A stretch of DNA of 64,000 bases from Candidatus Moraniibacteriota bacterium (GTDB lineage Bacteria > Patescibacteriota > Minisyncoccia > Moranbacterales > UBA1568). Location of the stretch: assembly GCA_016699425.1 (NCBI GenBank), contig CP064975.1, positions 451,212-515,211 of the forward strand, in the 5' to 3' direction. The translations under genes and the position numbers were made by a program. Below are positions 8 through 44,004 of the stretch, in pieces. Every line of letters begins with the position of its first letter. Position 1 is the first letter of the stretch. The notes beneath the pieces are model-generated. The model was not told the origin of the DNA, ran no database searches, and saw only the letters and a program-made list of their open reading frames with translations.

Positions 8-679
8 ATGCTGCTCCGGGAGGAATTTCCTGAGGTGCGTTTCTTTCCCCACGCGGAAAATGTCGGCTTCGGCCGTCTCATCAACACGTCTATCCGCGAA
101 TCGGTCGGGCAGTATCTGTTTTTTATCAATGCGGACATCATCCTCCAATCGGATACGATTGGCGTGCTGCTTGCCTATGCGCGGGCTCACCCAGACGTCG
201 GCCTGATCGGGCCGAAGCAACTCAATTTCAATGGTTCGCTCCAGTCGACCTGCCTTCGTTTCTATCGGCCGATGACCATTCTCTATCGCCGCACGTGGTT
301 GAAACATTTCTCGTTCGGTCAGCGACACCTCAACTGGTTTACGATGAGTGACTTCGACCATACGTATGAGCGTGACGTGGATTGGATCATGGGATCAGCA
401 CTCTTTGTTCCGCGCAGTGCTGTCGAGGTGGTCGGTCCGATGGACAATAGGTTCTTCATGTATATGGAGGATGTCGACTGGTGCCGACGTTTCTGGGAAC
501 GGGGGTATCGGGTTGTCTATGTACCCACGGCTTCTGTCTACCACTATCATGCCAAGGGCAGTGCCAAGGGCGGCTTTTTCCGCTCCCTTCTAGCCAATCG
601 TCTTACCTGGTATCATATCGAGAGTGCCCTGCGTTATTTCTTCAAGTATCGCGGGAAACCGTTACCCGAGCATCTCTAG
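8..679 (+). CDS. family 2 glycosyltransferase, 5'-truncated at the window edge
   Basis: The ORF runs in from the edge. It carries GT2-like motifs (FFINADII, DVDWCRRFWERGYRVVYVP). Stop at 677-679. Confidence 0.6.
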   Translation: MLLREEFPEVRFFPHAENVGFGRLINTSIRESVGQYLFFINADIILQSDTIGVLLAYARAHPDVGLIGPKQLNFNGSLQSTCLRFYRPMTILYRRTWLKHFSFGQRHLNWFTMSDFDHTYERDVDWIMGSALFVPRSAVEVVGPMDNRFFMYMEDVDWCRRFWERGYRVVYVPTASVYHYHAKGSAKGGFFRSLLANRLTWYHIESALRYFFKYRGKPLPEHL

Positions 680-683
680 ACCG

Positions 684-1965
684 TATGACTGAACCCGAAA
701 CACTTCCGATGTCTGAATCAGCTGCGCGTCCGAATCGAGCGCGTCGCTTCATCGCAGCGGGGGCGCTGATTGGCCTTGTCCTCTTCGCATTCTATGCCGG
801 ATATCAGAAAGGCAAGTACGGGTCGGCCATGACGGAAACGCCGATATCTCCGAACCAGGCTGTTTTCCGGAATACTACTGAGGGTGGGGATGCGTCCATT
901 GACTTTTCACTTTTTTGGAAAGTCTGGAATCTTTTGAAGGAGAAGTATGTGGATCGTGATCAACTTGATGCCAAGAAGCTTTTCTATGGCGCCATCGATG
1001 GTATGCTTGCGGCGACAGGGGATCCCCATACGACCTTTTTCGATCCGGCGGAAAATAAGGAATTCAAAGAGGGTCTCGACCAATCGTTTGATGGCATCGG
1101 GGCGGAGATGCAGATCAAGGATGGAATTTTGACAGTCGTCGCGCCACTCGAAGATTCGCCGGCCCAAAAAGCCGGGATCTTGGCGGGTGACAAGATCCTG
1201 AAGATCAATGGTGAGTCGACCGAGAATCTCGGACTGAGTGAGGCCGTCGACAAAATCCGTGGTCCACGCGGCACCGAAGTTCAGCTAACCATCTTCCATC
1301 CGGACGAGGACGGTCTCCGGGAAGTGACGGTCCAGCGCGATGTGATAACTGTGAAGAGTGTTCTCTTGGAAATCCGGGAAGGCATCGCTGTCATCAAGGT
1401 GACTCAGTTCGGTGTCGAAACAACGGATGAATTCAGGCATACAGTCGAAGAGATCCGTCGTCAGGACGTGCGCGGCATTCTCCTCGATGTCCGGAATAAT
1501 CCTGGCGGATTCCTCGATGCGGCCGTCGATCTCGCCGGCTATTTCCTGCCCTCTGGGTCAGTCGTCGTCATCGAGGAAGACGCTGACAAAAAGCGCCATG
1601 AGCTGAAAACGCGGGGCGACAATCGCTTCGGATCCTTGCCGGTGGTGATCCTGATGAATCAGGGCAGCGCGAGCGCTTCAGAAATCCTGGCCGCAGCTAT
1701 CCGGGAACACAGAGAAGACTCAGCGCTCGTCGGTGAGACATCCTATGGCAAGGGGTCGGTACAAGAACTCATCCCAGTCTCGAGCACGACGTCGGTAAAA
1801 ATCACAGTGGCGCATTGGCTGACGCCAGAGGGTCATCAGATCAATGGGGTTGGGATTAAACCCGACGAAGAAGTGAAGCTCACGCGGGATGATTTCGAGG
1901 CTGGTCGTGATCCACAGTTCGATCGGGCTTGGGCGGTGCTCATGTCCAAGACATCTCATCAGTAA
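684..1965 (+). CDS. S41 family C-terminal processing peptidase with PDZ domain
   Basis: Start chosen at the internal ATG at 684 (MTEPETLPMSES...); the listed ORF start at 481 overlaps the upstream gene. N-terminal TM helix. PDZ (GIGAEM...ILAGDKILKING). S41 core (LDVRNNPGG, MNQGSASASEI, SYGKGS). Confidence 0.75.
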
Positions 1966-2307: not shown

Positions 2308-2334
2308 TTAGCACTCACTTGACGAGTCTGCTAA
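2308..2334. promoter_or_regulatory. CIRCE-like inverted repeat (HrcA operator) upstream of groES
   Basis: TTAGCACTC-N9-GTCTGCTAA. The left half is perfect; the right half has 2 mismatches against the GAGTGCTAA consensus. About 70 nt upstream of the groES ATG. Confidence 0.5.
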
Positions 2335-2405
2335 GTCTGCCTACAATTGGGACCAGGGTACACCTGTTCGGTAGTTGGATAAATGGCGTAACAATTTTTA
2401 ACACT

Positions 2406-2687
2406 ATGTCAAAGCTGCAAATTCAGCCCCTTGGGGAAAACGTGCTCGTTCGGATTGGGGCAAAGGAAACAAAGACTGCTTCGGGTCTTTTTCTACCTGA
2501 GAGTGCTTCGGGCGAACGCGAACAGCAGGGGACGGTCGCTGCGGTCGGTTCCGATAAGGCGATCGCGGTCAAGAAAGGAGACACCGTCATATTCAAGCGG
2601 TATGGAACGAGCGAAGAGCTCAAAGTGGGCGATGTCGACCACCTGCTCCTGAATTACAAGGATATCCTGGCCATCGTCATTTCCTGA
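2406..2687 (+). CDS. groES: co-chaperonin GroES
   Basis: Start ATG at 2406 (MSKLQIQPLGENVLVR...). Typical GroES pattern (KTASGLFLPE...GTVAAVG...GDTVIF..Y). Confidence 0.85.
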   Translation: MSKLQIQPLGENVLVRIGAKETKTASGLFLPESASGEREQQGTVAAVGSDKAIAVKKGDTVIFKRYGTSEELKVGDVDHLLLNYKDILAIVIS

Positions 2688-2774: not shown

Positions 2775-3614
2775 TTACTTCGCTGCCGGCTCGATTGGGA
2801 GCCCCTTCTCTTTCCAGGCTGCAAATCCTCCTGAGATGATCCGGATACCGATCGATCCCATATCGAAGAGCCGGGCACCGGACTGAAACGTATCGTTTTC
2901 ATCTGTGCCATACACGAATAAGGAGCCGATCGGGATGGACTTCCGATCTTTTTCGAGCCGAGCGAAAGGAATGTTGATTGCGCCTGGGATATGGCCTCGC
3001 ATGTACTCGCTCTCGCTCCGGACATCGACGATGACGCTCTGGACAAGTGTCCGCTGAAGTTCGATGACCTTCTCCGGAGCGATCGTGGTGACCTTGGTCC
3101 GATCGACATATGAGTTTGGATCGCTGATCGCGACCACTCCTCCGCCTTTGGCGACCCATTGCCGGATACCACCTTCGAGGAATGCAAATGTCATCTGCTT
3201 TGACGTGAAGCGGTTATGGATCTCTCGGAGCTGCTGGCTAGAATTTTCGTCGCCGGTGACGATGACGACGAGTTGGCCCGTCGGTGCGCTGTAGGTGGCG
3301 ATTTCTGCTAATCCGAGCCATTCGGAATCGATGAGGTGGTACTGCTCGAAAACCTCTCGGGGACGAACGTCGATCAGGTGAATGTCCTCACTGTGTTTAA
3401 TTCGTTCAAGAATATTTTCTGGACTGATGAAACGGAGTTCTGTGAGGCCTGATGTCTCCGACGTCTTTGTAGAGTTCGTCTGGTGGTTCTTGTACCAGGT
3501 CCGGCCGAGCATCACGATCGCTCCGCCGAACATGAGCACGGCCAGGAGTAGCACAACACGGCCTTCGCTCGAGGCTTTTCGGCGCGAACGAAACGTCCTT
3601 GGAGGGATGCTCAT
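2775..3614 (-). CDS. membrane-anchored tandem rhodanese-domain sulfurtransferase-like protein
   Basis: N-terminal TM helix. Two rhodanese-like modules (HLIDVRPREVFEQYHLIDSEW; VIVDVRSESEYMRGHIPGAINIP). The ATG overlaps the fmt stop (ATGA). Confidence 0.65.
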   Translation of the reverse strand: MSIPPRTFRSRRKASSEGRVVLLLAVLMFGGAIVMLGRTWYKNHQTNSTKTSETSGLTELRFISPENILERIKHSEDIHLIDVRPREVFEQYHLIDSEWLGLAEIATYSAPTGQLVVIVTGDENSSQQLREIHNRFTSKQMTFAFLEGGIRQWVAKGGGVVAISDPNSYVDRTKVTTIAPEKVIELQRTLVQSVIVDVRSESEYMRGHIPGAINIPFARLEKDRKSIPIGSLFVYGTDENDTFQSGARLFDMGSIGIRIISGGFAAWKEKGLPIEPAAK

Positions 3615-18939: not shown

Positions 18940-18965
18940 CTCTGGGACGAAGTTGGAAATTTTAT
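18940..18965. repeat. gene-terminal motif, copy 2 (CTCTGGGACGAAGTTGGAAATTTTAT)
   Basis: Overlaps the stop of the methyltransferase gene. Confidence 0.8.
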
Positions 18966-19711
18966 TTCGAATTTTGACGCTTAATAAATGAAAGCATATG
19001 ACATATTGGTTTTCCGCTTTTAGATGCTGATTTATTCATAATAGGTTTTTCTACGATTAGTTCAAAACCGGCTACGTTTGCTGATTCTCGAACTGATTCA
19101 ACTGGTCTCAGAATATCAAAAATAGTACTGGTAACACCGCCACCGAGGTTCCGTTCTATCTTTACTTCTATGGCTCCATCAGCTAATTGACGGACGATTT
19201 CAGCCATAACAATATGTTTTCCTTGACCGGTCTCAGAAGAGAGTTCATCGTCTTTATCTCCCATAACAAGAATAAGTTTTCCGTTATCCGCAAGAAGTTG
19301 ACTAATTTCTTGAAAAGCAACTTGCAGGTCTTCGATGTGTTCAATGACCATCACCGCAAAAGCCGTGTCGAACTTTTCTTTCGTTGTTTCCGAAAACTTT
19401 TTGAGCGTAGATAGATGTGAAGTTGCCCATGGATATTTTTCTGTACTTGTTTTTATATTTGCTTCTGATGGATCGATACCTTGAATATCGCTAGCCCCTT
19501 TCTCTTTGAGCCAGTTAAAAAGGTGACCTGTTCCTGATCCTATATCTAGTATTTTTTTATCTTTTATCGCATCAATTTCGACAAACGAATCCAAAGACTC
19601 TCGCAAGTATTTGCGAGAAGGTGAATCTTCCGCTCCACGCAAGTGCCACTGCGTCTCAGGAAGATCATATTGTTTCGGATCTGTTGCTTTTGGAAATTCT
19701 CCTATATTCAT
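18962..19711 (-). CDS. class I SAM-dependent methyltransferase
   Basis: Motif I ILDIGSGTGHL plus downstream acidic and aromatic motifs. Low GC. Confidence 0.75.
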   Translation of the reverse strand: MNIGEFPKATDPKQYDLPETQWHLRGAEDSPSRKYLRESLDSFVEIDAIKDKKILDIGSGTGHLFNWLKEKGASDIQGIDPSEANIKTSTEKYPWATSHLSTLKKFSETTKEKFDTAFAVMVIEHIEDLQVAFQEISQLLADNGKLILVMGDKDDELSSETGQGKHIVMAEIVRQLADGAIEVKIERNLGGGVTSTIFDILRPVESVRESANVAGFELIVEKPIMNKSASKSGKPICHMLSFIKRQNSK

Positions 19712-19728
19712 AATTTTATTTGTTGTCC

Positions 19729-19754
19729 CTATGGGACGAAGTTGGAACTTATTT
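19729..19754. repeat. gene-terminal motif, copy 3 (CTATGGGACGAAGTTGGAACTTATTT)
   Basis: Overlaps the stop of the 196-aa gene. Confidence 0.8.
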
Positions 19755-20339
19755 GATTTTCTCTACCTGACTCATAAGTACTCGATACATCAGGGATATA
19801 ATAAACAAAAAACCCTCTTTTTCCGGCATGAACTGATTAAGTCTAATTACAGTATCATCCTTATATTCTGCTGGGAAGTTTATACTCAAATACAGCATCG
19901 TCTTACTTTTTTCCTTCCACATCCGATATTTAATTTCCTTTTCACCCGCAAATCTGGATAAAAAATTATCGATAGATTTCCCAGGTTTTGACCAGTTTAT
20001 CATTTCTTTAGTAAATGCTATTTCATCCCAACTTTTATAAAATGGGAAATGTACAAGGATATTTCTTACAAAAAGTATATATTCTTTTGAAAGCTCTGCT
20101 TCTAGCGGTGGCCTGATTATTTTTAGATTATCCAGAAACCACCCCACTGGTTCGTACTCAAGAATTTCTGAATAGATAAGAATAGCATCTCGCATCCTGC
20201 TTAATCTGTAGTATGGATCTTTGCTCCAAAATGAATCTTTGCTGATTTCCTCGAAAATATCTAAGAAAGCATCATAAGACGACTGTAGAAAGAGCTCCTC
20301 TTTTTTACTAGGTCTTTGATTCATATTGATCCTATTCAT
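19749..20339 (-). CDS. hypothetical protein (island)
   Basis: 196 aa, low GC. Overlaps the upstream gene by 8 nt, implying an operon. Confidence 0.45.
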   Translation of the reverse strand: MNRINMNQRPSKKEELFLQSSYDAFLDIFEEISKDSFWSKDPYYRLSRMRDAILIYSEILEYEPVGWFLDNLKIIRPPLEAELSKEYILFVRNILVHFPFYKSWDEIAFTKEMINWSKPGKSIDNFLSRFAGEKEIKYRMWKEKSKTMLYLSINFPAEYKDDTVIRLNQFMPEKEGFLFIISLMYRVLMSQVEKIK

Positions 20340-21618
20340 ACATCTCTAAATATGGCTTCACCCAGTCTTTCCCGTACACTTCTTCAACAAGTTTTAAATG
20401 TTGCGGTGTCATTTTAGCCTCTATCGAATCAAGGTAACCAAAAATGTCTTCTTTATCGGCAAGTGAAAGAATTTTTGTGTCATACTTAGCTATTTTTCTC
20501 TGAACATCACCAAAGCTAAGGAGACCAGCCATTTCCCTGTCCACAAGCATCGCATCCACATAAGGTAATAGTGTAGAAATCATTTCCACATCACTAGCCA
20601 TACCCCTGTTTGGCGGTAACTTTCGTCCTCCATGCGCAGCCTGATGGGCAATTGCTGCCCACAAAGATGCAGCAATTTCATTAAATGGAATATCTAACAT
20701 TTCTTCTGAGGAAAGAAAGTTTACTACTGCCATAAATTTTTCGTGTCTATCTTTTCCCGGAGCAAATGTTATCAAACTATGGACCAAAACCTGTTCATCC
20801 CAGAACTCAAAAAAAGTTGATGGATCAAATGCTGATGTGCCATTTTCTATGGCTTGTCCGTAGTTTACTAAAGCCTGAGCATACCTCTGTGACATTGCTT
20901 TTCCCCATGCCAGTCCCTCTTCCTTGAACCAATCAGGGAAAGCCATACCCTTTTCTTTTTGCCACCTCTCGAAAGTTGCTTTTAGGGAATCAGCAATCCT
21001 TTCTCTTGCGTTTCTCTCGGCCTCCACATCTTTCGGATCTACTTTAGAGTCAACTGTCACATAGATTCTGCCTCCCCAGCTCCCATGGCTGTTCTCTAAA
21101 ACATCATCTTTTGTTATTTCAGTATCTTTCTCGCCCCCTAATTTTCGAAACTTCGATGCAACTTGAAACCTTCTAATTGTAGGTGCATCTAAAAATGTTG
21201 TCCCACCAGAAAAGTGATCATACATTTTTTTCAAGGGTGCATATTTGCCTAATTTTGATTCAGTTCTGTGAAAAGTAGAATCAGGAATTTCAATTAATTG
21301 TAGTCTATGCAGTCTCTCAAGTTTTTCAAATAGCTTTAACCAAAACTTATCTACCTTTTCTGTTTTCCCAAGCTTCGCATTAAGCGCCAGCATCATATTG
21401 CTTATTGCAAATTGATCGAGATAGATGATGTGTTTTTCAAGTACAGGTAAATCAAACCTTTGGGAATACCAACACTTAGTGCATCGACGGGTATAGTTAT
21501 CATTGCCACCCGTCATAATTAAAACCCCAAAGTTTTTCGTTGAACACTTCGGACAAGTAATATAGGGCTCAGATATGAAAATTCGTGGATCAATGCTTAT
21601 AGCCGCTTCTTCTGCCAT
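20332..21618 (-). CDS. hypothetical protein with N-terminal zinc-ribbon (island)
   Basis: 428 aa. CPKCS...CTKCWY is a Cys4 ribbon. No other motif recognised. Low GC. Confidence 0.5.
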   Translation of the reverse strand: MAEEAAISIDPRIFISEPYITCPKCSTKNFGVLIMTGGNDNYTRRCTKCWYSQRFDLPVLEKHIIYLDQFAISNMMLALNAKLGKTEKVDKFWLKLFEKLERLHRLQLIEIPDSTFHRTESKLGKYAPLKKMYDHFSGGTTFLDAPTIRRFQVASKFRKLGGEKDTEITKDDVLENSHGSWGGRIYVTVDSKVDPKDVEAERNARERIADSLKATFERWQKEKGMAFPDWFKEEGLAWGKAMSQRYAQALVNYGQAIENGTSAFDPSTFFEFWDEQVLVHSLITFAPGKDRHEKFMAVVNFLSSEEMLDIPFNEIAASLWAAIAHQAAHGGRKLPPNRGMASDVEMISTLLPYVDAMLVDREMAGLLSFGDVQRKIAKYDTKILSLADKEDIFGYLDSIEAKMTPQHLKLVEEVYGKDWVKPYLEMYE

Positions 21619-22261
21619 AGCTCTAAATTTAAACTGTTGAAACTTATGTTAGACCTAAAAATGATAATAAACAAATGTCTCGCTTGTTGACATGGGACTT
21701 AAAGTGATGTAGGTTCTACTTGGAAACTTAAAAACCGAAATCCCGCAAATTATATTATTTTTTGCTGGCCACAAAGGGCGGATCAACTATACTAATAAGT
21801 CCCAAAGGAACAACCTATTCTAGGACCCGGGCAGCCCGATCCATTTCAACTCTACTTAAAGGCTCATATTACATATTCCATAGGGAACCTCATGCTGATT
21901 GAGCGCTCTGTGTGATTTTTTAAATCTATTTGATACTTAAGAAACCATCTTCAATTAGGGGTTGGTTTTTTCGTTTCCCAGAATTTTATTCTCTGGGGAA
22001 TGAAGCAAAGATTTATCAAAGAATTACGAGATCGGATAAAAGCGTATTCACAAACACGCTGTGCTTTGGCTATTTCCGATGATGAAGTAGAGCCAAAAAA
22101 GGATTTGTCAGTGCTATTGGTGAACGGAAAACAATTGTTCTGAAAAGGTTACTTTGGAACCTTGAAATCAAAGAGAAAGTTGTGGATACCGTCAGCTACA
22201 AAAAGCCTTACGGCATAACAAAAAAGCACCCAAAACGGGTGATTTTTCGGAAATGCTGAAC

Positions 22262-22287
22262 CTATTGGACGAAGTTGGAACTTATTT
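22262..22287. repeat. gene-terminal motif, copy 4 (CTATTGGACGAAGTTGGAACTTATTT)
   Basis: Sits 7 nt before the stop of the SET-domain gene. Confidence 0.8.
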
Positions 22288-22293
22288 ACTCGG

Positions 22294-23220
22294 CTAATCA
22301 AGCAAACTTTTAAGTTTATCGATAAAACCATTCTTTTTCATTTCTTCGAATAAAATCCAGTCAGCCGTATAGAGGAGATACTTTAATTTGTACTCTTTCG
22401 GGAGTTTCCGCCAGGGGAGAATATCGCCAAAACAATTTTTAGATCCACACAAACATTTGCCACCAGGTACCTGCCAATCGGAATTACAGAAGAGGCTATA
22501 GGAGAGAGTGAGTTGTTCGCCGGGCTCGATGTCTCTCATCGTGCAGACGGAAAACAAATCTTTTACGTAGCAGTTCGGTTCGCACGAATGATTTATTTTT
22601 ACTGCAATAGTATTGAACGCATTTCTATAAAAATACTTACTAAATGGGACGGCGTGATCCTTGGCAGTTTTGTGTGTCTTGGCGATGTCAGATTCTTTCT
22701 CCGCAAAAATGACCTCCCCGTCAATATAGGCGATACTGGTTTCCTTGGGAATAAATTCTTTTGCAAAAACACCCGAACCAAGTAAATCATCTACCTTTTT
22801 TATTTCCACCGCCTTACTATCCTGAAATGGGGATGATTGTGGTAGCTCATGCCAAGTAAATTCACTACATTCAAACTTTTTTGAAACGAAATCAATTATT
22901 TTGTTGGTATCAAAATCAGAACAAGTATAGATGTCTACCGTAAAGAAATTTGTATCATTCCAGACATAGGTACTTACTTCATTTTCGTTCCAAACGATGA
23001 ATCCATCATAGGAAGAATTCTCTTCTACTTTCTTGTTGAAAGCATAATCAAAAACAAAAGGACCTCGTAGTCCTTTGATGATATTATCAGGGTCTTTAAT
23101 CTGCTCGGTGAAATCTAAAAGAAAATTATAAAGAAAATCTAAGCTCGTAATTTTGGCTCCATACTTTCCTTCGATGATGAGCCTCTTTCTAAAAATTTCT
23201 GGAGCTATATTGTGATACAT
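22294..23220 (-). CDS. SET-domain protein (putative lysine methyltransferase)
   Basis: Start at the internal Met (MYHNIAPE). The listed ORF start at 23364 reads through the tRNA and is rejected. SET motifs INHSCEPNCYV and GEQLTLSY. Post-SET Cys cluster CLCGSKNC. Confidence 0.65.
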   Translation of the reverse strand: MYHNIAPEIFRKRLIIEGKYGAKITSLDFLYNFLLDFTEQIKDPDNIIKGLRGPFVFDYAFNKKVEENSSYDGFIVWNENEVSTYVWNDTNFFTVDIYTCSDFDTNKIIDFVSKKFECSEFTWHELPQSSPFQDSKAVEIKKVDDLLGSGVFAKEFIPKETSIAYIDGEVIFAEKESDIAKTHKTAKDHAVPFSKYFYRNAFNTIAVKINHSCEPNCYVKDLFSVCTMRDIEPGEQLTLSYSLFCNSDWQVPGGKCLCGSKNCFGDILPWRKLPKEYKLKYLLYTADWILFEEMKKNGFIDKLKSLLD

Positions 23221-23237
23221 AGAGGTAAAATGATTTG

Positions 23238-23309
23238 CTGGGGAGGAAGGGATCGAACCTTCGCATGGTGGGACCAGAACCCACTGCCTTACCGCTTGGC
23301 TACTCCCCA
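23238..23309 (-). tRNA. tRNA-Gln (anticodon CTG)
   Basis: The reverse complement folds as a cloverleaf. Acceptor stem TGGGGAG/CTCCCCA. D arm GCCAAGCGGTAAGGC, close to E. coli tRNA-Gln. Anticodon loop TT-CTG-GT. T arm GAAGGTTCGATCCCTTC. Confidence 0.8.
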
Positions 23310-23320
23310 ATGTTAGGTGC

Positions 23321-23563
23321 TTAGTTGTTCTCTTGAAACTGTCTCTGTATCGCTCGTCGTCCACTTCGCGACTTCAAGAATAGTTCTCTTTTTCTGGCTT
23401 CAATGAGATTATCATACTCTTCGCTATACGCAAGGATGAAGGGACGGCGATTTTTTGTAGAAATGTTTTTGCCAGCATTATGCTCGTCTAATCGGCGCTT
23501 TAGGTCGGTTGTGGATCCAACGTATGTACGATGATCTTTCTGACTGAGCAATATTATAGACAT
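23321..23563 (-). CDS. GIY-YIG nuclease superfamily protein (small, UPF0213-like)
   Basis: 80 aa. GIY-YIG core ...RTYVGSTTDLKRRLDEHN... Confidence 0.75.
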   Translation of the reverse strand: MSIILLSQKDHRTYVGSTTDLKRRLDEHNAGKNISTKNRRPFILAYSEEYDNLIEARKRELFLKSRSGRRAIQRQFQENN

Positions 23564-35998: not shown

Positions 35999-37036
35999 TT
36001 ATAGACTAAAGAATGACTCTACGCCATTGGTGCTAGCGCGCATAAAATCGGTGAATCCTTTTTTATATAGTTCTATTTTGATTCCCGGAAATTTTTCAGC
36101 AGTGAGATTAGCATTTGGAGATACAATCCCAAAAGGAATTTCGCTTTTCTGAAAATTTTTATTAATTAAATCAACCAGGTAATCATCTCCCGCCTTCCAT
36201 CCAATTATTAAAATTCCGTCAATTTTTTCAAAGGAATCGGTCAATAACTTTACATGTCGTTCTGGGCATACAAAATTTTTCTTATCAGTAATAGGAATTG
36301 CTAGTGAAGGCACGGAGTAACGATGTGTTGTTGTAGTCCCAATTTTAAGAATCTTACGATAATGTCCATCGATATATATCTCCTCATCTAATTCAGTGAT
36401 CTTTAAATCATTGTGAATCCGCTCTGCATGCCTATAAAGGTATTCGTCATTTTTTGGTGCGAGATGTGAATCACTTTCATCGACGATCTGGATCCAATTG
36501 TACGCTCCGTGAATCTTAATAACTTTCAAGTGTGCATCACTAATGTAATCATCAACCCTTTGAAAGCCATTGGAATTGTTATAAAAGCTGAGATTCTTCT
36601 CGAAAAGTAAGTCATAATTAAAATTTACTACAATGGCGTTGCCACCGCAGTAGTCACCCAATCGATCTATAAGTCCACGATAATTGTTGACAGGGCTAAA
36701 ATAGTTATTACTTATCTCCCTAAATAGATCCCTTAAGTACAGTCTTAGGGCAATAAGTTGCTGATATCTCTCCTTATTCCGTGGCGCATATTCGTTTTGA
36801 ATTTTAGTTAAAAATTTCTCAAAATCTCCAATTGCTTCGTCTGTCATGCTTGAAGCAATACCAGAAACTATATTATTTGTTGCGATAAACTGCTTAAATC
36901 TTTCATGAAAGAGATCCTTCGTAAGTGGTGGTTTCAATCTAAAATCAATGCCACCGGCTACACTCAAGGAATTAAACCTATCCTCAACATAGTCGAATGC
37001 GGCGCCTGCTCCCAAAATAATTAGTGGATATTTCAT
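35999..37036 (-). CDS. standalone SIR2-like (SIR2_2/DUF4917-type) protein; candidate NADase defence effector
   Basis: Motifs LIILGAGAAFD, VVNFNYDLLFE, IKIHGAYNW and ILIIGWKAGDD appear in the order and spacing of the SIR2_2 family. GC is clearly lower (~38%) than both flanks. Confidence 0.6.
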   Translation of the reverse strand: MKYPLIILGAGAAFDYVEDRFNSLSVAGGIDFRLKPPLTKDLFHERFKQFIATNNIVSGIASSMTDEAIGDFEKFLTKIQNEYAPRNKERYQQLIALRLYLRDLFREISNNYFSPVNNYRGLIDRLGDYCGGNAIVVNFNYDLLFEKNLSFYNNSNGFQRVDDYISDAHLKVIKIHGAYNWIQIVDESDSHLAPKNDEYLYRHAERIHNDLKITELDEEIYIDGHYRKILKIGTTTTHRYSVPSLAIPITDKKNFVCPERHVKLLTDSFEKIDGILIIGWKAGDDYLVDLINKNFQKSEIPFGIVSPNANLTAEKFPGIKIELYKKGFTDFMRASTNGVESFFSL

Positions 37037-37072: not shown

Positions 37073-38059
37073 TTACTTCTTTTCTTCCTTTGGTGCTTCT
37101 TCGGCTGGCTTCTCCCCGTCTGAAGCCGAGGCAGGCTCTACTTCAACATCTTTCGGCAAGGCTGACGAATCGGCAGGAGTGATCTTCACCGGGGCGGCGA
37201 ATGCTTCTGCTTTGGGGAAATTCGTGAGTGCCACGAGGAACAAGACGAGGGTGAAGAGGAGTGGGACATGGGCAGACGTGGCCGTCAGGAGAAAGCAGAA
37301 GGCGAGCGGAGCCGGGAGGAGATAGAGCGTCGAGAGATAGGCCCGACCATAGGTGAGTTGCTGTTTGCGAATGCTCGCGGCGATCCAGACGACAAGGGCG
37401 CCGAAGAGTGCATACAGAAGATAGGCGATCCAGACGCCCAGGTACATGAGAGCCGGCATGAAGAACATGAGCACCAAGAGCCCCGTCCGAGCCACCGCGA
37501 AGCCGCGCTCCACCCACTCTGCGAACCGGGCCGGGGTCACGATGAGACGGTCATTGAACCCAGCTTCCTTCAGATTGAAGATGCGTGTTTCGCCGCGATC
37601 TGGATTATGAAAGCCAACTTCCTGTGCCCCGAGGATAGCGACCGTATCGAGCTCAGCAAAGTCAGACTGATTGATCGGTTGTTTCGTGTCGATCACGAGG
37701 AGATTTGCTGGTAGCTCTTCTCTGACGCAGCGGCGCATGTCACACTCAGCCATTGCGCGCCAGGCTTCGGGGAGTGGAATCACTACTGGTCCTGCTTGAT
37801 TCGTGGTGACTGTATCGCGATTCACGGTGAGTGTCAGATCATCTGGATAGAGTCCAGCGACGATGCTCTTTTGCACTTGCCACTCTCCCGAACGGATTGA
37901 CTGGATGACCGTCACCGCACTCGGGAGCATGGAAAGCACAGCCATCACAACGAAACAAAGTACCGTCAGCGAGTAAAAGTGCAGACTCTGACCGAAAGTG
38001 AAGGTCTGGGCACGGAAGAAATTCGGCCGATAGAAGATGTCCTTGATACGCTCGATCAT
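37073..38059 (-). CDS. multi-pass membrane protein of unknown function with acidic C-terminal tail
   Basis: Several TM helices. The C-terminus [13 protein letters not shown] is shared with the DnaK tail at both DNA and protein level. Confidence 0.45.
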   Translation of the reverse strand: MIERIKDIFYRPNFFRAQTFTFGQSLHFYSLTVLCFVVMAVLSMLPSAVTVIQSIRSGEWQVQKSIVAGLYPDDLTLTVNRDTVTTNQAGPVVIPLPEAWRAMAECDMRRCVREELPANLLVIDTKQPINQSDFAELDTVAILGAQEVGFHNPDRGETRIFNLKEAGFNDRLIVTPARFAEWVERGFAVARTGLLVLMFFMPALMYLGVWIAYLLYALFGALVVWIAASIRKQQLTYGRAYLSTLYLLPAPLAFCFLLTATSAHVPLLFTLVLFLVALTNFPKAEAFAAPVKITPADSSALPKDVEVEPASASDGEKPAEEAPKEEKK

Positions 38060-38113: not shown

Positions 38114-40099
38114 TTACTTCCCATCTGCCTTCGCATCCGAGGCAGGCTTTCCTTCATCTTTCGGCTTCTCCCCGTCTGAAGCCGAGGTGGACTCTACTTC
38201 GGCGTCTTTGGCCTGGCCTGCATCTGCCGAAGCGTCAGAAGCATTGCCAGCAGGGCTTCCTTGAGCTGCAGAAGCAGCTTGGGCCTCTTGTGCAGCCTTA
38301 TACAGCTTCTCGCCGATCTTTTGGGCGGCCTGGGACAGTTCCTCAGTTGCCTTCTTGATGGCCTCCACATCCTGGCTATCTTTCAGGTTTTTCAAGGCTT
38401 CCAGCTTTTCCAAGACGGGTTTGCGCTCATCATCGGTTAGCTTGTCGCCCGCGTCCTTCATGGCTTTTTCGGTCGAGTAGGACAGCGTGTCTGCCATATT
38501 TTTCACTTCGATCAGCTCTTTCTTTTTCTTGTCTTCTTCGGCGTGGAGCTCGGCGTCCTTCTTCATCTTTTCGATCTCGTCCTTGGAGAGACCAGTACTG
38601 GACTCGATGCGGATAGACTGGGTCTTGCCACTCGCCTTGTCTTTGGCCGTCACAGACAAGATACCCGACGCGTCGATGTCAAAGCTGACTTCAATCTGCG
38701 GGATGCCACGCGGTGCTGGTGGGATACCGTCGAGGACGAAGCGGCCGAGCGATTTGTTGTCGGTGGCCATCTCACGCTCACCCTGGAGGACATGAATTTC
38801 GACTTGCGGTTGATTATCGACCGCGGTGGAGAAGGTCTGGCTCCGTGTTACGGGGACGGTGGTATTGCGATCGATGAGGGGGGTGCGGACACCGCCGAGT
38901 GTCTCGATACCGAACGTGAGTGGCGTCACATCGAGGAGGAGTACATCTTTCACGCTCCCCTCGAGCACGCCGCCCTGGATGGCAGCACCGATGGCGACGA
39001 CTTCATCCGGGTTCACGGTGATGTTCGGCTTCTTGCCGAAGAACTTCTCAACCGTCGCGAGAACAAGCGGCATACGGGTCATCCCACCGACGAGCACGAT
39101 TTCATTGATATCACCGACCGAGAGCTTGGCATCGGCGAGGGCTTTCTTTACAGGCTCAAGTGTCCCTTCAATCAAGTCGTGAACGAGTTCCTCGAGTTTG
39201 GCCCGGGTGAGTTTGATGACGAGGTGCTTCGGACCGTCGGCACCGCTGGTGATGAACGGCTGATTGATTTCGGTTTCTTGCGCGGTAGACAATTCGATCT
39301 TGGCTTTCTCAGCGGCTTCCTTGATGCGCTGGAGGGCAAGCGGGTCTTTGGACAAGTCGATACCCTCCTGCTTCCGGAACTCATCGAGGATCCAGTGGAT
39401 CACTCGCTGATCGAAGTCATCACCACCGAGATGGGTATCACCATTGGTCGACTTTACTTCAACCGTATCAACGGTATCGGTTGAGACTTCGAGGATGGAA
39501 ATATCGAAGGTCCCGCCCCCGAGATCATAGACGGCGATCTTTTCGTCTTTCTTCTTGTTGAAACCATAGGCGAGAGCTGCGGCGGTCGGCTCATTGATGA
39601 TACGACGGACATTGAAGCCAGCAATCTCACCCGCCTCCTTGGTCGCTTTGCGCTGCGAGTCATCAAAGTAGGCCGGGACGGTGATGACAGCATCGGTGAT
39701 TTTCTCACCGAGTTTCTCCTCCGCATCGGCTTTGAGCTTGGCCAGAACCATCGCGGAGAGCTCCTGCGGGCTGTACTCCTTACCGCCCATGACGATCTTC
39801 ACGCCCTCGCCGGCCTGCACGATCTTGTAGGGAAGCGTCTTCATGTCGCGCTTCACTTCGTCGTCATTGAAGTGACGGCCGATGAGGCGCTTCACGGAGA
39901 ATAGGGTGTTCTCGGGATTGGTGACAGACTGGCGCTTGGCGAGGAGTCCGACGAGGCGCTCCCCGGTCTTCGAGATCGCGACCATACTGGGTGTGGTGCG
40001 ATTGCCTTCCTTGTTTTCGATGACACTGGGGGTGCCACCTTCGACGAACGCCATCGCCGAGTTAGTGGTCCCGAGGTCGATGCCGAGTATCTTTGCCAT
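38114..40099 (-). CDS. dnaK: molecular chaperone DnaK (Hsp70)
   Basis: Hsp70 signatures ([26 protein letters not shown]). 661 aa. Confidence 0.95.
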
Positions 40100-40225: not shown

Positions 40226-41173
40226 TCACGAGGTGACCGTCACTTTTGCGGGACGGACGAGTTTATCTTTTATCTTGTAGCCTTTCTGGACAACCTTCAC
40301 TATCAAGTGACGACCTACAACCGACGACTCCTGCTCCTGATCACCATTGTCTTTCTCGTCGTGGGTAGTAAGTGGTTGGTTGTTGGTCATTGAGAGCGCT
40401 TCGTGCTGGGTGGGGTCGAACGCGTCGCCTGGTTTCACTTCGAGAGGCGTGACACCGTAATTGGCCAAAACATCCTCAAACTGCTTCTCGATATACGTAA
40501 TACCCGTGACCCAGGGACTGCCCGCCGCATCGGCTGGGACATGCTCGGTCGCGGCGTGGAAATTATCGAGCACTGGGATGAGTTCGGTGACGATTTGGCT
40601 GGTCAGGTGACCATAAAGCTCCTTCTCATCGTTCTTCACCCGTTTCTTGTAGTTCTCGAAGTCGGCGAGGATGCGGAGCACATCACTCGCTCCTTCCTGT
40701 GCCTTGATCCTCATGAGCGCAGCCGCAACCGCATTCTTCAACCACTCCTTGCATTCCGAGTCATTCTCTATCGCTTCGAGGTCTCGCCATTCAAATCGAT
40801 CGTGCTCATCACTGAGTTTCGGTTCACCGCCCGTGTAAAGTGCGAGAGAGAACAGAACTGTCCGGTCGATTACCCGTCCATCGCGAGTGACCTGCATCAG
40901 GCAGCCCGTGACGACTTCCTTCAGTTCATAGGAGACATCACCGATTTCTTCCTGCAACTCACGCCCGATAGCTTCTGCCGGATCTTCACCGGCATGCACC
41001 CGCCCACCCGGCAGATCCCATGGACCATACTTCTTGTAAAATTCAAACTCAGGGTGAGCATCCCGGACCAGAAGGAATTTCTTGGTCATCGCATCGTAGA
41101 GCACCACTTTCTGGCTCAGCTGGAACATGGCGTGATGCTGATGCTGCAAATGGTCATGTTTTTTCTCAGGCAT
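40226..41173 (-). CDS. grpE: NUDIX-domain / GrpE fusion protein (nucleotide exchange factor GrpE with N-terminal Nudix domain)
   Basis: N-terminal Nudix box GGRVHAGEDPAEAIGRELQEEIG. C-terminal GrpE region (ADFENYKKRVKNDEKE...VLDNFHAA...FDPTQHEAL...). Confidence 0.75.
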   Translation of the reverse strand: MPEKKHDHLQHQHHAMFQLSQKVVLYDAMTKKFLLVRDAHPEFEFYKKYGPWDLPGGRVHAGEDPAEAIGRELQEEIGDVSYELKEVVTGCLMQVTRDGRVIDRTVLFSLALYTGGEPKLSDEHDRFEWRDLEAIENDSECKEWLKNAVAAALMRIKAQEGASDVLRILADFENYKKRVKNDEKELYGHLTSQIVTELIPVLDNFHAATEHVPADAAGSPWVTGITYIEKQFEDVLANYGVTPLEVKPGDAFDPTQHEALSMTNNQPLTTHDEKDNGDQEQESSVVGRHLIVKVVQKGYKIKDKLVRPAKVTVTS

Positions 41174-41210
41174 AGATTTTTTGATTAGGATGTTCGGGTG
41201 ATGGTACTCT

Positions 41211-41774
41211 TCACTGCTTCAAATAATTTCTGTCGTTCTTCACGCGCTTCTTGTAATTCTCGAAGTCTGCCGTGAGACGTTGGACATCACTCAGATATCC
41301 TTGTTCTATGAGACGAGTTTGTGCTTTTAGGAAGGCCTCACGCAGAACGGGATATATTTTTTCATCGCTCCAAATCTCTTCAGGTGTCTTCCAAATATAC
41401 TCATTATGTTCTTCGCTCAGTTCAATTTCTCCAGTCTTGTAAAGACCGAGATGTATCACGGAAATTCCCGGGCGAGATGCCCACTGGCTGCGAACCACAA
41501 AAACTGGGCCAAGAAGTTCGTACTGGATATCACCAGCCTCCTCTTCTACCTCTCGGAGTAAAGCTTCTTCAGGTGATTCTTCTCCTTCCATGTGACCACC
41601 GAGCAATACCCAAGGGTCATACTCTGGATGCTTTTTAAAGAAATCAGATTCCGGTTCTTTGACCAGAAGAAATTTCTTAGTTTGCGGATTCCATAGGATT
41701 AATTTCTGAGAAACCGTGAAGAGTCCCCAGGTGAGATCTTCAGTTTTTTTCACAATTTCATTGTGTTTAGACAT
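41211..41774 (-). CDS. NUDIX-domain protein ending in a truncated GrpE N-terminal segment (partial duplicate of the adjacent fusion gene)
   Basis: Nudix box LLGGHMEGEESPEEALLREVEEEAG. The C-terminus LTADFENYKKRVKNDRNYLKQ matches the GrpE start of the downstream gene. The DNA repeats 40630-40665. Confidence 0.55.
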   Translation of the reverse strand: MSKHNEIVKKTEDLTWGLFTVSQKLILWNPQTKKFLLVKEPESDFFKKHPEYDPWVLLGGHMEGEESPEEALLREVEEEAGDIQYELLGPVFVVRSQWASRPGISVIHLGLYKTGEIELSEEHNEYIWKTPEEIWSDEKIYPVLREAFLKAQTRLIEQGYLSDVQRLTADFENYKKRVKNDRNYLKQ

Positions 41775-41952
41775 AGATGATGAGAGTTAGGATAAGCGAT
41801 AATGTTCTTTTTTGTTGGTCATAGGATTTTTTATTACGAGGTGCGGGTCATGGCGCTTTTCGCAGCTTCGAAGAGTTTCTGACGTTCTGCTTCGGTGAGC
41901 GGTTTATCTGTCTCATCTATTTCCGATTTGTCATCTGCTGTTCTGTCAGGGT

Positions 41953-42708
41953 TTACCATACTGGTGCCTGCGTGATGACGATGATGACGAGCGAGGAACC
42001 GAGGAGGCGGCGCATATGCTCGATGAGGGACTTGTTCTTGGCGTACTCCATGCGCTTGGGCCCGATGATCGCGAGGATGCCACGTTCGCCGTGTGCGTCC
42101 CGATACGGTGAGACGACCATCGCACAGTTTCCGATACCCGCGACCGGGTTTTCCCCGCCGATATAGATGCGCGTCTCGCCGTCTTTTAGTCCCGCCATCA
42201 GGGTCTCGATATTCTCATCGAGGGTGTCGAGCGTCTCGACGAGGCGGCAGAGCTCGTCCATCTCCTGGAATTCCGGATTCTCCATGAGGGACTTCATCCC
42301 GAAATCGTACATCTCGTCCTTGCCGACGATACCGGAGATGCCGAGATTGCCGGAGAGGACCGAGAGGAGCCGGGCCGTGGTCCGGACGGTGCGATTGTGC
42401 TTGGCCTGGAGGATGAGGAATTCCTCTTGGAGTTTCAGCTGGTCCTTCTTGGACAGCGGCTTATCCCGCATCATCTCTTCGACATAGTAGCGATACCCTG
42501 CGTCCGTCGGGATGCGGCCAGCCGACGTATGCGGCTGATAGAGGTACCCCGCCTCCTCGAGTGCGAGCATGTCGCTCCTGAGGGTCGCTGAACTCACCGA
42601 AAAATGGTGCTGCTCCAAAAGTGCCTCGGACCCGACGGGCAGGGCAGTCTTCGTATACAGCTCGACCACAGCGGCGAGCACTTCTTTTTGGCGGTCATTT
42701 GTATCCAT
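41953..42708 (-). CDS. hrcA: heat-inducible transcription repressor HrcA
   Basis: N-terminal winged-helix (QKEVLAAVVELYTKTALPVGSEAL). HrcA-family body. A CIRCE element lies immediately upstream. Confidence 0.8.
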   Translation of the reverse strand: MDTNDRQKEVLAAVVELYTKTALPVGSEALLEQHHFSVSSATLRSDMLALEEAGYLYQPHTSAGRIPTDAGYRYYVEEMMRDKPLSKKDQLKLQEEFLILQAKHNRTVRTTARLLSVLSGNLGISGIVGKDEMYDFGMKSLMENPEFQEMDELCRLVETLDTLDENIETLMAGLKDGETRIYIGGENPVAGIGNCAMVVSPYRDAHGERGILAIIGPKRMEYAKNKSLIEHMRRLLGSSLVIIVITQAPVW

Positions 42709-42729
42709 GACTCTAGTATAAAAAATGCT

Positions 42730-42756
42730 TTAGCACTCGTCAAGTGAGAGTGCTAA
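42730..42756. promoter_or_regulatory. CIRCE operator (TTAGCACTC-N9-GAGTGCTAA), perfect consensus
   Basis: TTAGCACTCgtcaagtgaGAGTGCTAA sits 22 nt upstream of the hrcA start. Confidence 0.85.
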
Positions 42757-43623
42757 TTAACGTACAGACTCACAATGATACAAGAAAAGCCCAGAGAGTG
42801 TCTCGGGCTTCTGGATGCATGCCGTGATCATGTCACGACAGCGACCATTATTTATCACTGTGGGCCGCCATGTACAGTCGGCCGCAGGGCCGCCGATGCT
42901 CGCAATCATAGCAGACCAGACTGTTGACGGCTTGGAATTCCGCCGCTATTCCGAGCCGAATCCTCTCACCCCCCGCTATTTCACATGACACGTGGACGTC
43001 GGGATCATCTGAAACCCCTCCACCAGCGTTCGGCTTTTCCCGCAGTGAATTGCCTTTTCGTCGTTTCGGAGACCATTGCATCGCATCACCCCCCTGTCCT
43101 CACTCAATTAACTTGCTTCGTCCTCGTTTCGCCTGATACAGGCATGGGCGCAAACGACACAGAGCCCGCACTGCCTCACATAGTGCTCTCGGGCGACCTG
43201 TCTATCAACAATCGCTGGTCCACCGGCGTGAATCACGGCTTGTAGACACCGTACCTGTCCCGGCTTCAGGGCAGGTGGGGCCACGAGCTGAGGCACAGCT
43301 TTCCGCTGACGTCCCATCGCTTCCTCCTTTCTTCTGTTGAACAGCCAGATTTGCTGCGAGCTACTATTTTTGACCACGCGGACGACACTGGTACTTGCAA
43401 GTGAGTTTACATAGGTCGTTACGTGGGTCATAGTTCTTTCGCGCCAGCTTCGGATCAAGGATGACTTGTCTATCGCCACCACGCCGCAATTCAGCCACGA
43501 GGCACCTCATTTCGAACACCTTCCGTTCTTTCTGTCTCGCGTGGTGACCGTTCTTTCGAAGACTTTTCTTCATGATGACTCCCAGGCAGTGCAACACAGT
43601 GGATGGTCGAATGATAATTGAAA

Positions 43624-43648
43624 GGGGTCCTCTTCGTGAGAGGGCCCC
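43624..43648 (-). terminator. hairpin terminator (9-bp stem GGGGTCCTC/GAGGGCCCC)
   Basis: Strong stem-loop, followed on the minus strand by TTTCAATTAT. Downstream of the small ORF ending at 43682. Confidence 0.45.
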
Positions 43649-43681
43649 CTATCCTGCAATACCCAGTGAGCTCTTAGCCCG

Positions 43682-43810
43682 TTAGCCTCGGCACAGTGGG
43701 TTGTGCTGGCAGTTCTGGCATGTAGGACTTGTTGACATGTAATGCTCCTTGCGCGCTTCGGCCACAGAAATGTGGATCTTATGCTCTGGCAGCACCTGCA
43801 TGCAGCGCAT
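43682..43810 (-). CDS. small Cys-rich (zinc-ribbon-like) protein, hypothetical
   Basis: 42-codon ORF MRCMQVLPEHKIHISVAEARKEHYMSTSPTCQNCQHNPLCRG, terminated by the hairpin above. An upstream extension to 43975 is possible. Tentative. Confidence 0.25.
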   Translation of the reverse strand: MRCMQVLPEHKIHISVAEARKEHYMSTSPTCQNCQHNPLCRG

Positions 43811-44004
43811 CTTTCCAGGCGGAGGCGAGGTTACCGATCTCACTTTCTTTTTCTTCTTCCCCTTTCGAACAACGAGATCACTTCCCGGCACCAGGGGATC
43901 AGATCCCAAGTGATAGCGAGCTTTGCCAGGATGGCGCTGGGGGATTGAAACTGTTGCAACACCACGATGAGGCAAGATATTTCTCCTCTTTATGAAATGT
44001 TAAG

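Follow-up and report, generated by a model that had tools for sequence, protein, structure and literature searches.

The DNA analysed here, a 64,000-nt stretch of a Candidatus Moraniibacteriota genome (the window; contig CP064975.1), contains a heat-shock operon of the order hrcA-orf3-nudix-grpE-dnaK, in which the grpE gene (open reading frame ORF1) encodes a Nudix hydrolase domain fused to GrpE and the gene directly upstream of it (ORF2, here called cassette A) encodes a second Nudix domain that ends in the first codons of GrpE. We found that cassette A is of heterologous origin, that standalone Nudix genes recur at the corresponding place in other lineages, and that the catalytic residues of the domain are conserved. 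The reading that fits these observations best is that recombination at the 5' end of grpE has time and again brought in and exchanged Nudix modules. Cassette A itself probably derives from another Nudix-grpE allele, a divergent one, of which it is the 5' module; recombination would have lodged it upstream of the resident gene, in a manner that recurs in the group. The features of the locus are listed below from the operator to dnaK; coordinates are window positions, and the operon genes are all on the minus strand.

42730..42756, no strand assigned: CIRCE (controlling inverted repeat of chaperone expression) operator, TTAGCACTC-N9-GAGTGCTAA, 0 mismatches, 0.01 chance matches expected
42715-42743, minus strand: sigma-70-like promoter from the promoter scan, overlapping CIRCE
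41953..42708, minus strand: hrcA, heat-shock repressor, 251 aa (PF01628, E 8.5e-21)
41834..41959, minus strand: orf3, an intact conserved gene of 41 codons, whose ATG overlaps the hrcA stop
41787..41822, minus strand: mini-ORF of 11 codons, MTNKKEHYRLS followed by a stop
41211..41774, minus strand: ORF2 (cassette A), 187 codons, Nudix (Pfam NUDIX), linker and GrpE stub
41233..41239, minus strand: recombination junction with the 7-nt microhomology AGAACGA
41174..41238, minus strand: second copy of the orf3 tail (41185-41238) and intergenic spacer IG2
40226..41173, minus strand: ORF1 (grpE), Nudix-GrpE fusion gene, 315 aa (Pfam NUDIX and GrpE)
38114..40099, minus strand: dnaK, 661 aa (PF00012, E 5.5e-252)

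In ORF1, Pfam recognised NUDIX at residues 18-137 (E 1.2e-15; 58 bits against a cutoff of 21.1; DNA 40763-41122) and GrpE at residues 154-314 (E 9e-36; 123 bits against a cutoff of 25.8; model positions 23-164 of 165; DNA 40232-40714), and a continuous helix joins the two. The Nudix box, G57-x5-E63-x7-R71-E72-L-x-E75-E76-x-G78-D79, is intact at 40937-41005; the original prediction, made from the sequence of this locus, of an intact Nudix box fused to a canonical GrpE was thus borne out. ORF2 has NUDIX at residues 25-144 (E 4e-15; 56 bits), with an intact box at 41529-41597 (G60..D82). Compared with the consensus GX5EX7REUXEEXGU, the catalytic positions are complete in both proteins, the final hydrophobic position being Asp in both. 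After its Nudix domain ORF2 reads on into SDVQRLTADFENYKKRVKND; specifically, it consists of the Nudix domain, a linker, a stub of 19 codons from the GrpE start (41233-41291), and six out-of-frame codons of the orf3 tail before the stop. It had been described as a Nudix domain with about 20 GrpE residues, which is right for the Nudix domain and 19 GrpE codons but not for the last residues (...RNYLKQ), which are the orf3 tail read out of frame. The GrpE profile matched the stub with 24 bits and the NCBIfam GrpE models with E 0.003-0.008. Comparison of the locus with itself and alignment of the two GrpE starts (41233-41292 and 40629-40688) confirmed that these segments are homologous, with 80% identity over 60 nt (47/59 by direct inspection), slightly more than the 75% first estimated.

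A gapped local alignment of the two units, together with inspection of the joins, revealed one tandem unit, which starts inside the orf3 tail (AGAACGtCAGAAA..., ~41889), takes in the spacer, the region of the start codon and the whole Nudix domain, and ends in the GrpE start (...GTGAAGAACGA). The GrpE match in ORF2 ceases after ...KRVKND; what follows is DNA of the orf3 tail, with the frame shifted by one base. At this point AGAACGA (41233-41239) is common to the GrpE start (GTGAAGAACGAtgag) and the orf3 tail (GCAGAACGt/aCAGAAA). The second orf3 tail, which in its own frame would read ERQKLFEAVKSTITRTS followed by a stop, matches the orf3 profile (E 4e-9) and is identical to the intact orf3 tail at 41/54 nt. 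The tandem architecture that had been proposed was therefore found, as head-to-tail units with a single novel junction. A third, shorter remnant of the GrpE start, placed at 41858-41900, was not: that segment lies inside the intact orf3, is parental to the copy at 41185-41238, and is not homologous to GrpE. The repeated flanks are 76-80% identical in nucleotide sequence, and the full gapped alignment of unit to unit gives 54% with gaps counted. In addition, IG1 with the ATG of the mini-ORF aligns with IG2 with the ATG of the fusion gene, and the mini-ORF starts where and how Nudix-GrpE starts (MPEKKHDH in the fusion). This resemblance suggests a previous occupant of the slot and a history of more than one step, the mini-ORF probably being a vestige of the start of that earlier occupant.

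Such an arrangement could also arise if the 5' part of the resident Nudix-grpE gene had been duplicated in tandem where it lay and the upstream copy had then diverged for a long time and decayed, much as the original prediction had held in proposing successive tandem duplications with progressively decayed copies. The head-to-tail order, the clean microhomology junction and the repetition of both flanks fit this explanation, as do the truncation of the upstream copy within GrpE and the disrupted start before it. We regard it as quite improbable, however, since the copies are not mutual nearest relatives. The Nudix domain of ORF2 is only 34-42% identical to that of ORF1 (42% over 175 residues) but 61-64% identical to P0072, a fusion protein of the Nudix-GrpE type from a different lineage, which itself shares only 43% with ORF1; an exhaustive search of 1.8 billion representatives gave no relative of ORF2 closer than P0072. 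In neighbour-joining trees of the Nudix half, ORF2 and P0072 were paired in 200/200 bootstraps and ORF2 joined the resident clade in 0/200. A duplication with copies at 34% identity would be old and should be widespread, but none is present in L007-L010 or the other fusion loci surveyed, and the sister strains hold another cassette in the slot. The composition of ORF2 is foreign as well, with a G+C content at third codon positions (GC3) of 38%, compared with 59-66% for ORF1, 79% for hrcA, 69% for dnaK and 60±10% for the long ORFs of the window. Moreover, the duplicated flanks differ at 25 sites, and 18 of these are third codon positions when read in the functional frames (P ~9e-5 if an even spread is assumed), suggesting that the copies diverged largely as working alleles and not as a decaying remnant. 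Nor does decay describe the copies themselves, as orf3 is intact and conserved and the upstream Nudix domain keeps every conserved residue. The remnant orf3 tail and the spacer (with the fusion start) are identical over ~55 nt to those of L007, a single-copy locus, and the intact orf3 is of the L001/L011 type.

Some points weigh against the derivation of cassette A from a divergent allele. The neighbour-joining trees rest on only ~150 columns, and the low GC3 of ORF2 could be due in part to relaxed selection on an outgoing gene. No donor closer than 66% nucleotide identity was found, so that the transfer is deduced from phylogeny and composition and not observed, and cassette A was seen in a single assembly and contig. 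The dN/dS ratio (nonsynonymous to synonymous substitution rates) of cassette A against P0072 or ORF1 was uninformative, the synonymous sites being saturated.

The occupant of the slot differs between close strains. In the sister strains, whose fusion proteins are 96% and 88% identical to that of the window (flanking DNA up to 98%, with flanking genes at 97-99%, but hrcA ~83%), an identical orf3 is followed by a different Nudix gene of 152 aa (cassette C) and then by the fusion gene, an arrangement assembled independently in six contigs. Homology between the window and L001 ends at 41818 and resumes at 41174, and the cassettes in between are unrelated. Cassette C is 33% identical to cassette A and to the resident Nudix, groups with the fused Nudix of P0018 (198/200 bootstraps), and in L001 has no GrpE stub. 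In L007-L009 there is no cassette, and a relative at 74% identity has orf3 directly followed by the fusion gene.

The repeats might also be thought an assembly artefact, that is, a repeat collapsed or expanded during assembly, or two strains of a metagenome joined into a chimera. The source is indeed a metagenome-assembled genome, with cassette A on that one contig. An artefact is nonetheless hardly credible, for the longest exact word shared between the two units is 11 nt and the junction, at 7 nt, is shorter still. We reason that matches so short cannot make an assembler collapse, duplicate or join sequences, an argument drawn from the sequence alone. In addition, the contig carrying cassette A is 1.22 Mb long, and equivalent tandems were assembled independently in the cassette C contigs and several times elsewhere.

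Three further lineages, represented by L174/175, L176/177 and L172/173, also have a free-standing Nudix gene between hrcA and the Nudix-GrpE gene. The 3' end of hrcA is repeated after the standalone Nudix in L176, right behind the linker motif REYLSE, and L172 has a repeat of the leader and first six codons. Compared with one another, the five standalone copies are only 27-38% identical, and each is 55-63% identical to a fused Nudix of another lineage. As they are nearest to different fused Nudix domains, these copies are independent captures; a single ancient paralogue family was considered and rejected on the same comparisons. P0123, P0125, P0126, P0134, P0136 and P0145 were left out of the count of standalone copies, as these short database hits break off in or just before GrpE and look cut by contig ends. 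The spacer between the standalone Nudix and the fusion gene in L176 (~2860-3030) contains a G/C-rich imperfect inverted repeat (CACCCCCACCTTTGCGAAGGCGGGGG ... CCCCTTCGCAAAGTGGCGGGGG), which could be a hairpin or a small insert resembling a mobile element.

Family-wide, the history of the Nudix half disagrees with that of the GrpE half. In P0013, P0018, P0028, P0031, P0036 and P0039 the GrpE halves are 72-78% identical to that of ORF1 and the Nudix halves 30-37%, whereas in P0012 and P0014-P0016 the relation is reversed. The distance matrices of the two halves have a Spearman correlation of 0.21. Between the window and L001 the synonymous divergence (dS) is 0.01 in the Nudix half and 0.25 in the GrpE half, and L003 has an L007-like Nudix joined to a window-like GrpE.

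One might suppose that the upstream cassettes are a standing reservoir, from which recombination between the stub and the resident gene swaps the Nudix fused to GrpE, as in silent-cassette or orphan-module systems. Cassette A does keep a stretch similar to the resident GrpE start in the same orientation, the halves are shuffled family-wide, and sister strains have different cassettes in one slot. A 60-nt stretch at 80% identity, in which no exact run exceeds 11 nt, is, however, a poor substrate for homologous recombination, cassette C of L001 lacks any stub, only one spare copy is present per locus, and there is no sign of switching within a population. We consider a reservoir very unlikely.

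The origin that we prefer, capture of a divergent allele, may have proceeded as follows. Divergent DNA carrying hrcA-orf3-Nudix-grpE would have recombined with the resident locus, with the upstream exchange in the conserved orf3/spacer/start region and the downstream join by an illegitimate crossover that linked, at AGAACGA, the GrpE start of the incoming DNA to the orf3 tail of the resident locus. The latter would have truncated the incoming grpE, leaving its start, Nudix domain, linker and first 19 GrpE codons, and would have left the second orf3 tail behind. The locus could have arisen in one step, by homology-facilitated illegitimate recombination, or in two, one copy of an old local duplication having later been replaced by another allele. 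Of the expected signature, the microhomology join and the heterologous insert were found, and the upstream homologous anchor is plausible only.

Homology-facilitated illegitimate recombination is known in naturally transformable bacteria, where one join lies in conserved sequence and the other at a microhomology of a few bases (PMC3240628). Cassette A would likewise sit next to a homologous anchor, as do the inserts in such products. Unlike those cases, the event here is deduced from sequence, and duplication with replacement would leave the same scar. A further parallel is offered by polymorphic toxin loci. The orphan tips of Rhs and CdiA are displaced modules left by cassette replacement. 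The effector/immunity genes of Vibrio cholerae's type VI secretion system (T6SS) are reported to undergo sequential displacement in polymorphic loci (PMC5361080). The Nudix locus resembles the T6SS, Rhs and CdiA orphan modules in that a variable domain with a stub of the conserved part lies beside the full-length gene, close strains hold different cassettes in the same slot, and the phylogenies of module and core are discordant. It differs from them in that the cassette is N-terminal and upstream, with one spare copy only, and in that the module is a housekeeping-type hydrolase on a chaperone cofactor, with no immunity gene or other extra gene accompanying the cassettes.

Whether the standalone copies are themselves working genes was judged from their sequences. 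Cassette A retains 17/17 residues conserved in the family over an intact frame of 187 codons, and AlphaFold2 predicted for ORF2 a complete Nudix domain with a C-terminal helix stub (predicted local distance difference test score, pLDDT, 92). The five substitutions between the cassettes C of L001 and L003 are all synonymous (P ~6e-4) and so show directly that a standalone copy has been under purifying selection, and the tandem arrangement recurs in at least four other lineages. We therefore lean towards the view that the standalone copies, ORF2 included, would be expressed as functional free Nudix enzymes. That ORF2 is a non-functional leftover of allele replacement, with only the fusion gene of importance, seems to us the less likely alternative, though one with several points in its favour. 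The GrpE stub of ORF2 is truncated and ends in out-of-frame sequence, its codon composition is atypical, and cassette A is known from one genome only. The mini-ORF lies upstream of ORF2, no ribosome-binding site could be recognised by eye in front of it, and the promoter scan gave no promoter-like site there; the neighbours ORF1 and dnaK, however, are likewise without an obvious ribosome-binding site by eye. The comparable standalone copy of L176 has lost the conserved SxEH motif, indicating that some captured modules do decay.

The fusion itself is common. Nudix on a nucleotide-exchange factor had been thought unusual, but the search for such fusions in related genomes found them widely: the 120 best-matching database relatives, which reach down to 37% identity to ORF1, include 117 with both PF00293 and PF01025, mostly from Candidatus Moraniibacteriota. 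The named carriers are Candidatus Moraniibacteriota or unclassified Patescibacteria, and their proteins are annotated just as 'GrpE'. In a scan of GTDB with one genome per species, the fusion was present in at least about 12 species representatives among the matches listed, mostly labelled Moraniibacteriota or Patescibacteria, with four under other labels; other Moraniibacteriota had plain GrpE, and the window's own species was not among the matches listed. A scan of metagenome contigs gave only distant relatives and no new tandem cases among the matches listed. Full-text searches of the literature gave no paper on a Nudix-GrpE fusion or on the GrpE of Moranbacteria, and the fusion, common in its phylum, is apparently undescribed in the searchable literature. 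Two relatives of the GrpE half at 69-71% identity, P0103 (L011 2738-3301, with the same synteny) and P0078, are without Nudix. Their N-terminus consists of ~60 acidic residues ending in ...EW..KAEEYL.DLKR.QADFENYKKR, an end that resembles the last part of the C-terminal Nudix helix with the linker, suggesting that the Nudix domain was lost by internal deletion.

Among 80 aligned fusions with 38-96% identity, G56, G57, R71, E75, E76 and the downstream E123 are invariant, and E63, E72, G78, S121 and H124 are conserved in at least 90%. S121 and H124 belong to a motif, LSxEHxExxW, specific to the fusion family. The invariance of the catalytic residues argues for the fused Nudix being an active enzyme under purifying selection. 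AlphaFold2 predicted an alpha/beta/alpha Nudix fold for this domain of ORF1 (pLDDT ~97), a single unbroken helix at 143-210 in which the last helix of Nudix passes into the long helix of GrpE, a second helix at 220-238, and strands within 241-314. The predicted GrpE fold has the long N-terminal helix, helical bundle and C-terminal beta domain, and matches 1DKG, 4ANI and 3A6M.

GrpE is the nucleotide-exchange factor of DnaK, and in E. coli its N-terminal tail contacts the substrate-binding domain of DnaK. To our knowledge, GrpE is regarded as a purely structural exchange factor without enzymatic activity. ORF1 resembles the canonical proteins (4ANI of Geobacillus kaustophilus, 1DKG of E. coli) over residues 154-314, with profile matches to 4ANI (3e-29), 3A6M, 8GB3 and 1DKG, in the fold just described, and in its place between hrcA and dnaK behind CIRCE. 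It differs in having ~140 N-terminal residues that form a folded Nudix domain instead of a short disordered tail, and in a 20-residue, low-confidence insert at 266-286. Judging from the continuous helix of the model, the Nudix domain would be held rigidly at the tip of GrpE, where the canonical protein has its disordered tail.

The Nudix domain of ORF1 resembles pyrophosphohydrolases of nucleoside triphosphates (NTP) and dinucleoside polyphosphates (ApnA) and not the ADP-ribose enzymes. It shares the Nudix box and the alpha/beta/alpha fold with solved small Nudix enzymes (the Ap4A/Ap6A hydrolases 3I7U, 1VC8 and NUDT2, and MutT/MutT2, NudI/NudG and BdRppH 3EES; template modelling (TM) scores 0.75-0.84), with sequence E 2e-9 (3EES) and profile E 5e-18 (3GRN). 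It differs from them in its identity of only 18-28%, in the LSxEHxExxW motif and in its covalent attachment to a co-chaperone; no chain with Nudix and GrpE together was found by the profile search of solved structures. For the ApnA subfamily the evidence is divided: Foldseek against solved structures placed an Aquifex diadenosine tetraphosphate (Ap4A) hydrolase first (TM 0.83), followed by Methanosarcina mazei MutT, BdRppH, MutT2 and a Thermus diadenosine hexaphosphate (Ap6A) hydrolase, whereas by profile 3GRN, NudI, BdRppH and NudG scored higher than the Ap4A hydrolases, which were also among the best matches. No NCBIfam equivalog model reached its cutoff with the ORF1 Nudix, so that no substrate is assigned.

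Levels of Ap4A go up on heat shock; the nucleotide crosslinks to DnaK, GroEL and ClpB, and Nudix enzymes break it down (PMC10148737). Together with the CIRCE control and the class of the domain, these properties of Ap4A make a GrpE-borne hydrolase of Ap4A or NTP derivatives attractive, an idea akin to the possible link between ADP/ATP-derivative hydrolysis and the DnaK cycle in the original prediction, and we entertain as a tentative possibility that the Nudix domain hydrolyses an NTP or dinucleoside-polyphosphate (Ap4A-like) stress nucleotide beside DnaK during heat shock. Against this, the structural neighbours span the MutT, NudI, RppH and ApnA specificities, and RppH-like processing of RNA 5' ends or simple house-cleaning is equally compatible with the computed results. 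More speculative, and in our judgement unlikely, is the idea that the Nudix of Moraniibacteriota GrpE is a fast-exchanged specificity module coupling the destruction of stress or conflict nucleotides to the DnaK cycle, with alternative modules repeatedly acquired and a second, free enzyme kept under the same CIRCE. The targets may be an alarmone like Ap4A, the capped 5' end of an RNA or a signal derived from phage or host; if the idea were true, the cassettes would owe their diversity to diversifying selection on substrate range and not to neutral mosaicism.

If a conserved, apparently active nucleotide pyrophosphohydrolase is attached to the end of the long GrpE helix throughout the phylum, the Hsp70 cycle would be physically tied, unexpectedly, to the turnover of nucleotides or alarmones. 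It may provide a handle on an old puzzle, the accumulation of Ap4A in heat shock and its binding to DnaK (PMC10148737), and as the Nudix-GrpE proteins are small and easy to express, the hypothesis is directly testable. The locus is also an unusually clean record of a domain of an essential housekeeping gene being swapped between lineages, with junction, spare modules and strain polymorphism kept, in bacteria of the candidate phyla radiation, whose recombination biology is little known. If the Nudix merely cleans house and the mosaicism is neutral, the result would be a correction of the annotations 'GrpE' and 'NUDIX hydrolase'.

The setting of the fusion within an hrcA-grpE-dnaK operon, as first described, is supported by the Pfam calls, the gene order and CIRCE. 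The operon is of the CIRCE/HrcA type, with the repeat in the promoter region, the hrcA gene (PF01628), and grpE together with dnaK; hrcA has the same position in all related loci compared. With a perfect CIRCE 5' of hrcA, both Nudix proteins are likely produced together with DnaK in heat stress. A terminator scan gave none convincing between the operon genes, and the Rfam and tRNA scans gave nothing within or close to the locus.

The small gene orf3 encodes a protein with an acidic N-terminus and the C-terminal sequence ...ERQKLFEAAKSAMTRTS. It is conserved at 41-42 codons, with the C-terminal pattern ...E(R/Q)Q.(L/Q)FE..K....TR(T/S)S, and has no Pfam or NCBIfam match. The protein is identical in L001-L006 and has homologues in L007-L011, L018, L022 and L096-L100. 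In several Moraniibacteriota, both those that have the Nudix fusion and those that do not, the gene stands between hrcA and grpE. Its conservation where GrpE has no Nudix (L011, L018, L022, L096-L100) suggests an independent small gene and not debris. The possibility that orf3 is the split-off original N-terminus of GrpE was rejected, as in these same loci it precedes a GrpE that is whole, lacks Nudix and has an acidic N-terminus of its own.

A second CIRCE-like inverted repeat, with two mismatches, was found at 2308-2334, between an S41 peptidase/PDZ gene (481-1965, plus strand) and a rhodanese gene (2775-3614, minus strand). This repeat stands directly ahead of an ORF of 122 codons starting with TTG (2319-2687, plus strand), and no chaperonin gene adjoins the repeat among the ORFs inspected. 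Upstream of the hrcA promoter, the ~1.2 kb to yidD (~42760-43960) contains no convincing long ORF and no Rfam or tRNA match; homology with L001 is broken there at 43227-42921, with flanks 98% identical. Another stretch of low GC3 (27-40% vs ~60% elsewhere) is a block of four minus-strand genes at 18962-23364, encoding a class I methyltransferase, two products without Pfam match, and a protein with SET and S-adenosylmethionine (AdoMet)-decarboxylase-like parts. The last ORF of this block overlaps tRNA-Gln (23237-23309) with its 5' end, and the block looks horizontally acquired. Directly downstream of the DUF1189 gene, an ORF of 345 codons (35999-37036, minus strand; GC3 32%) has no credible Pfam match; the gene called after DUF1189 in L003 is shorter (174 aa), and the ORF may be a strain-variable insert. 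Finally, the ends of dnaK (38114-38215) and of the adjoining gene for the DUF1189 membrane protein (37073-37160), both on the minus strand, encode similar low-complexity tails, a likeness visible as DNA cross-matches between the gene ends.

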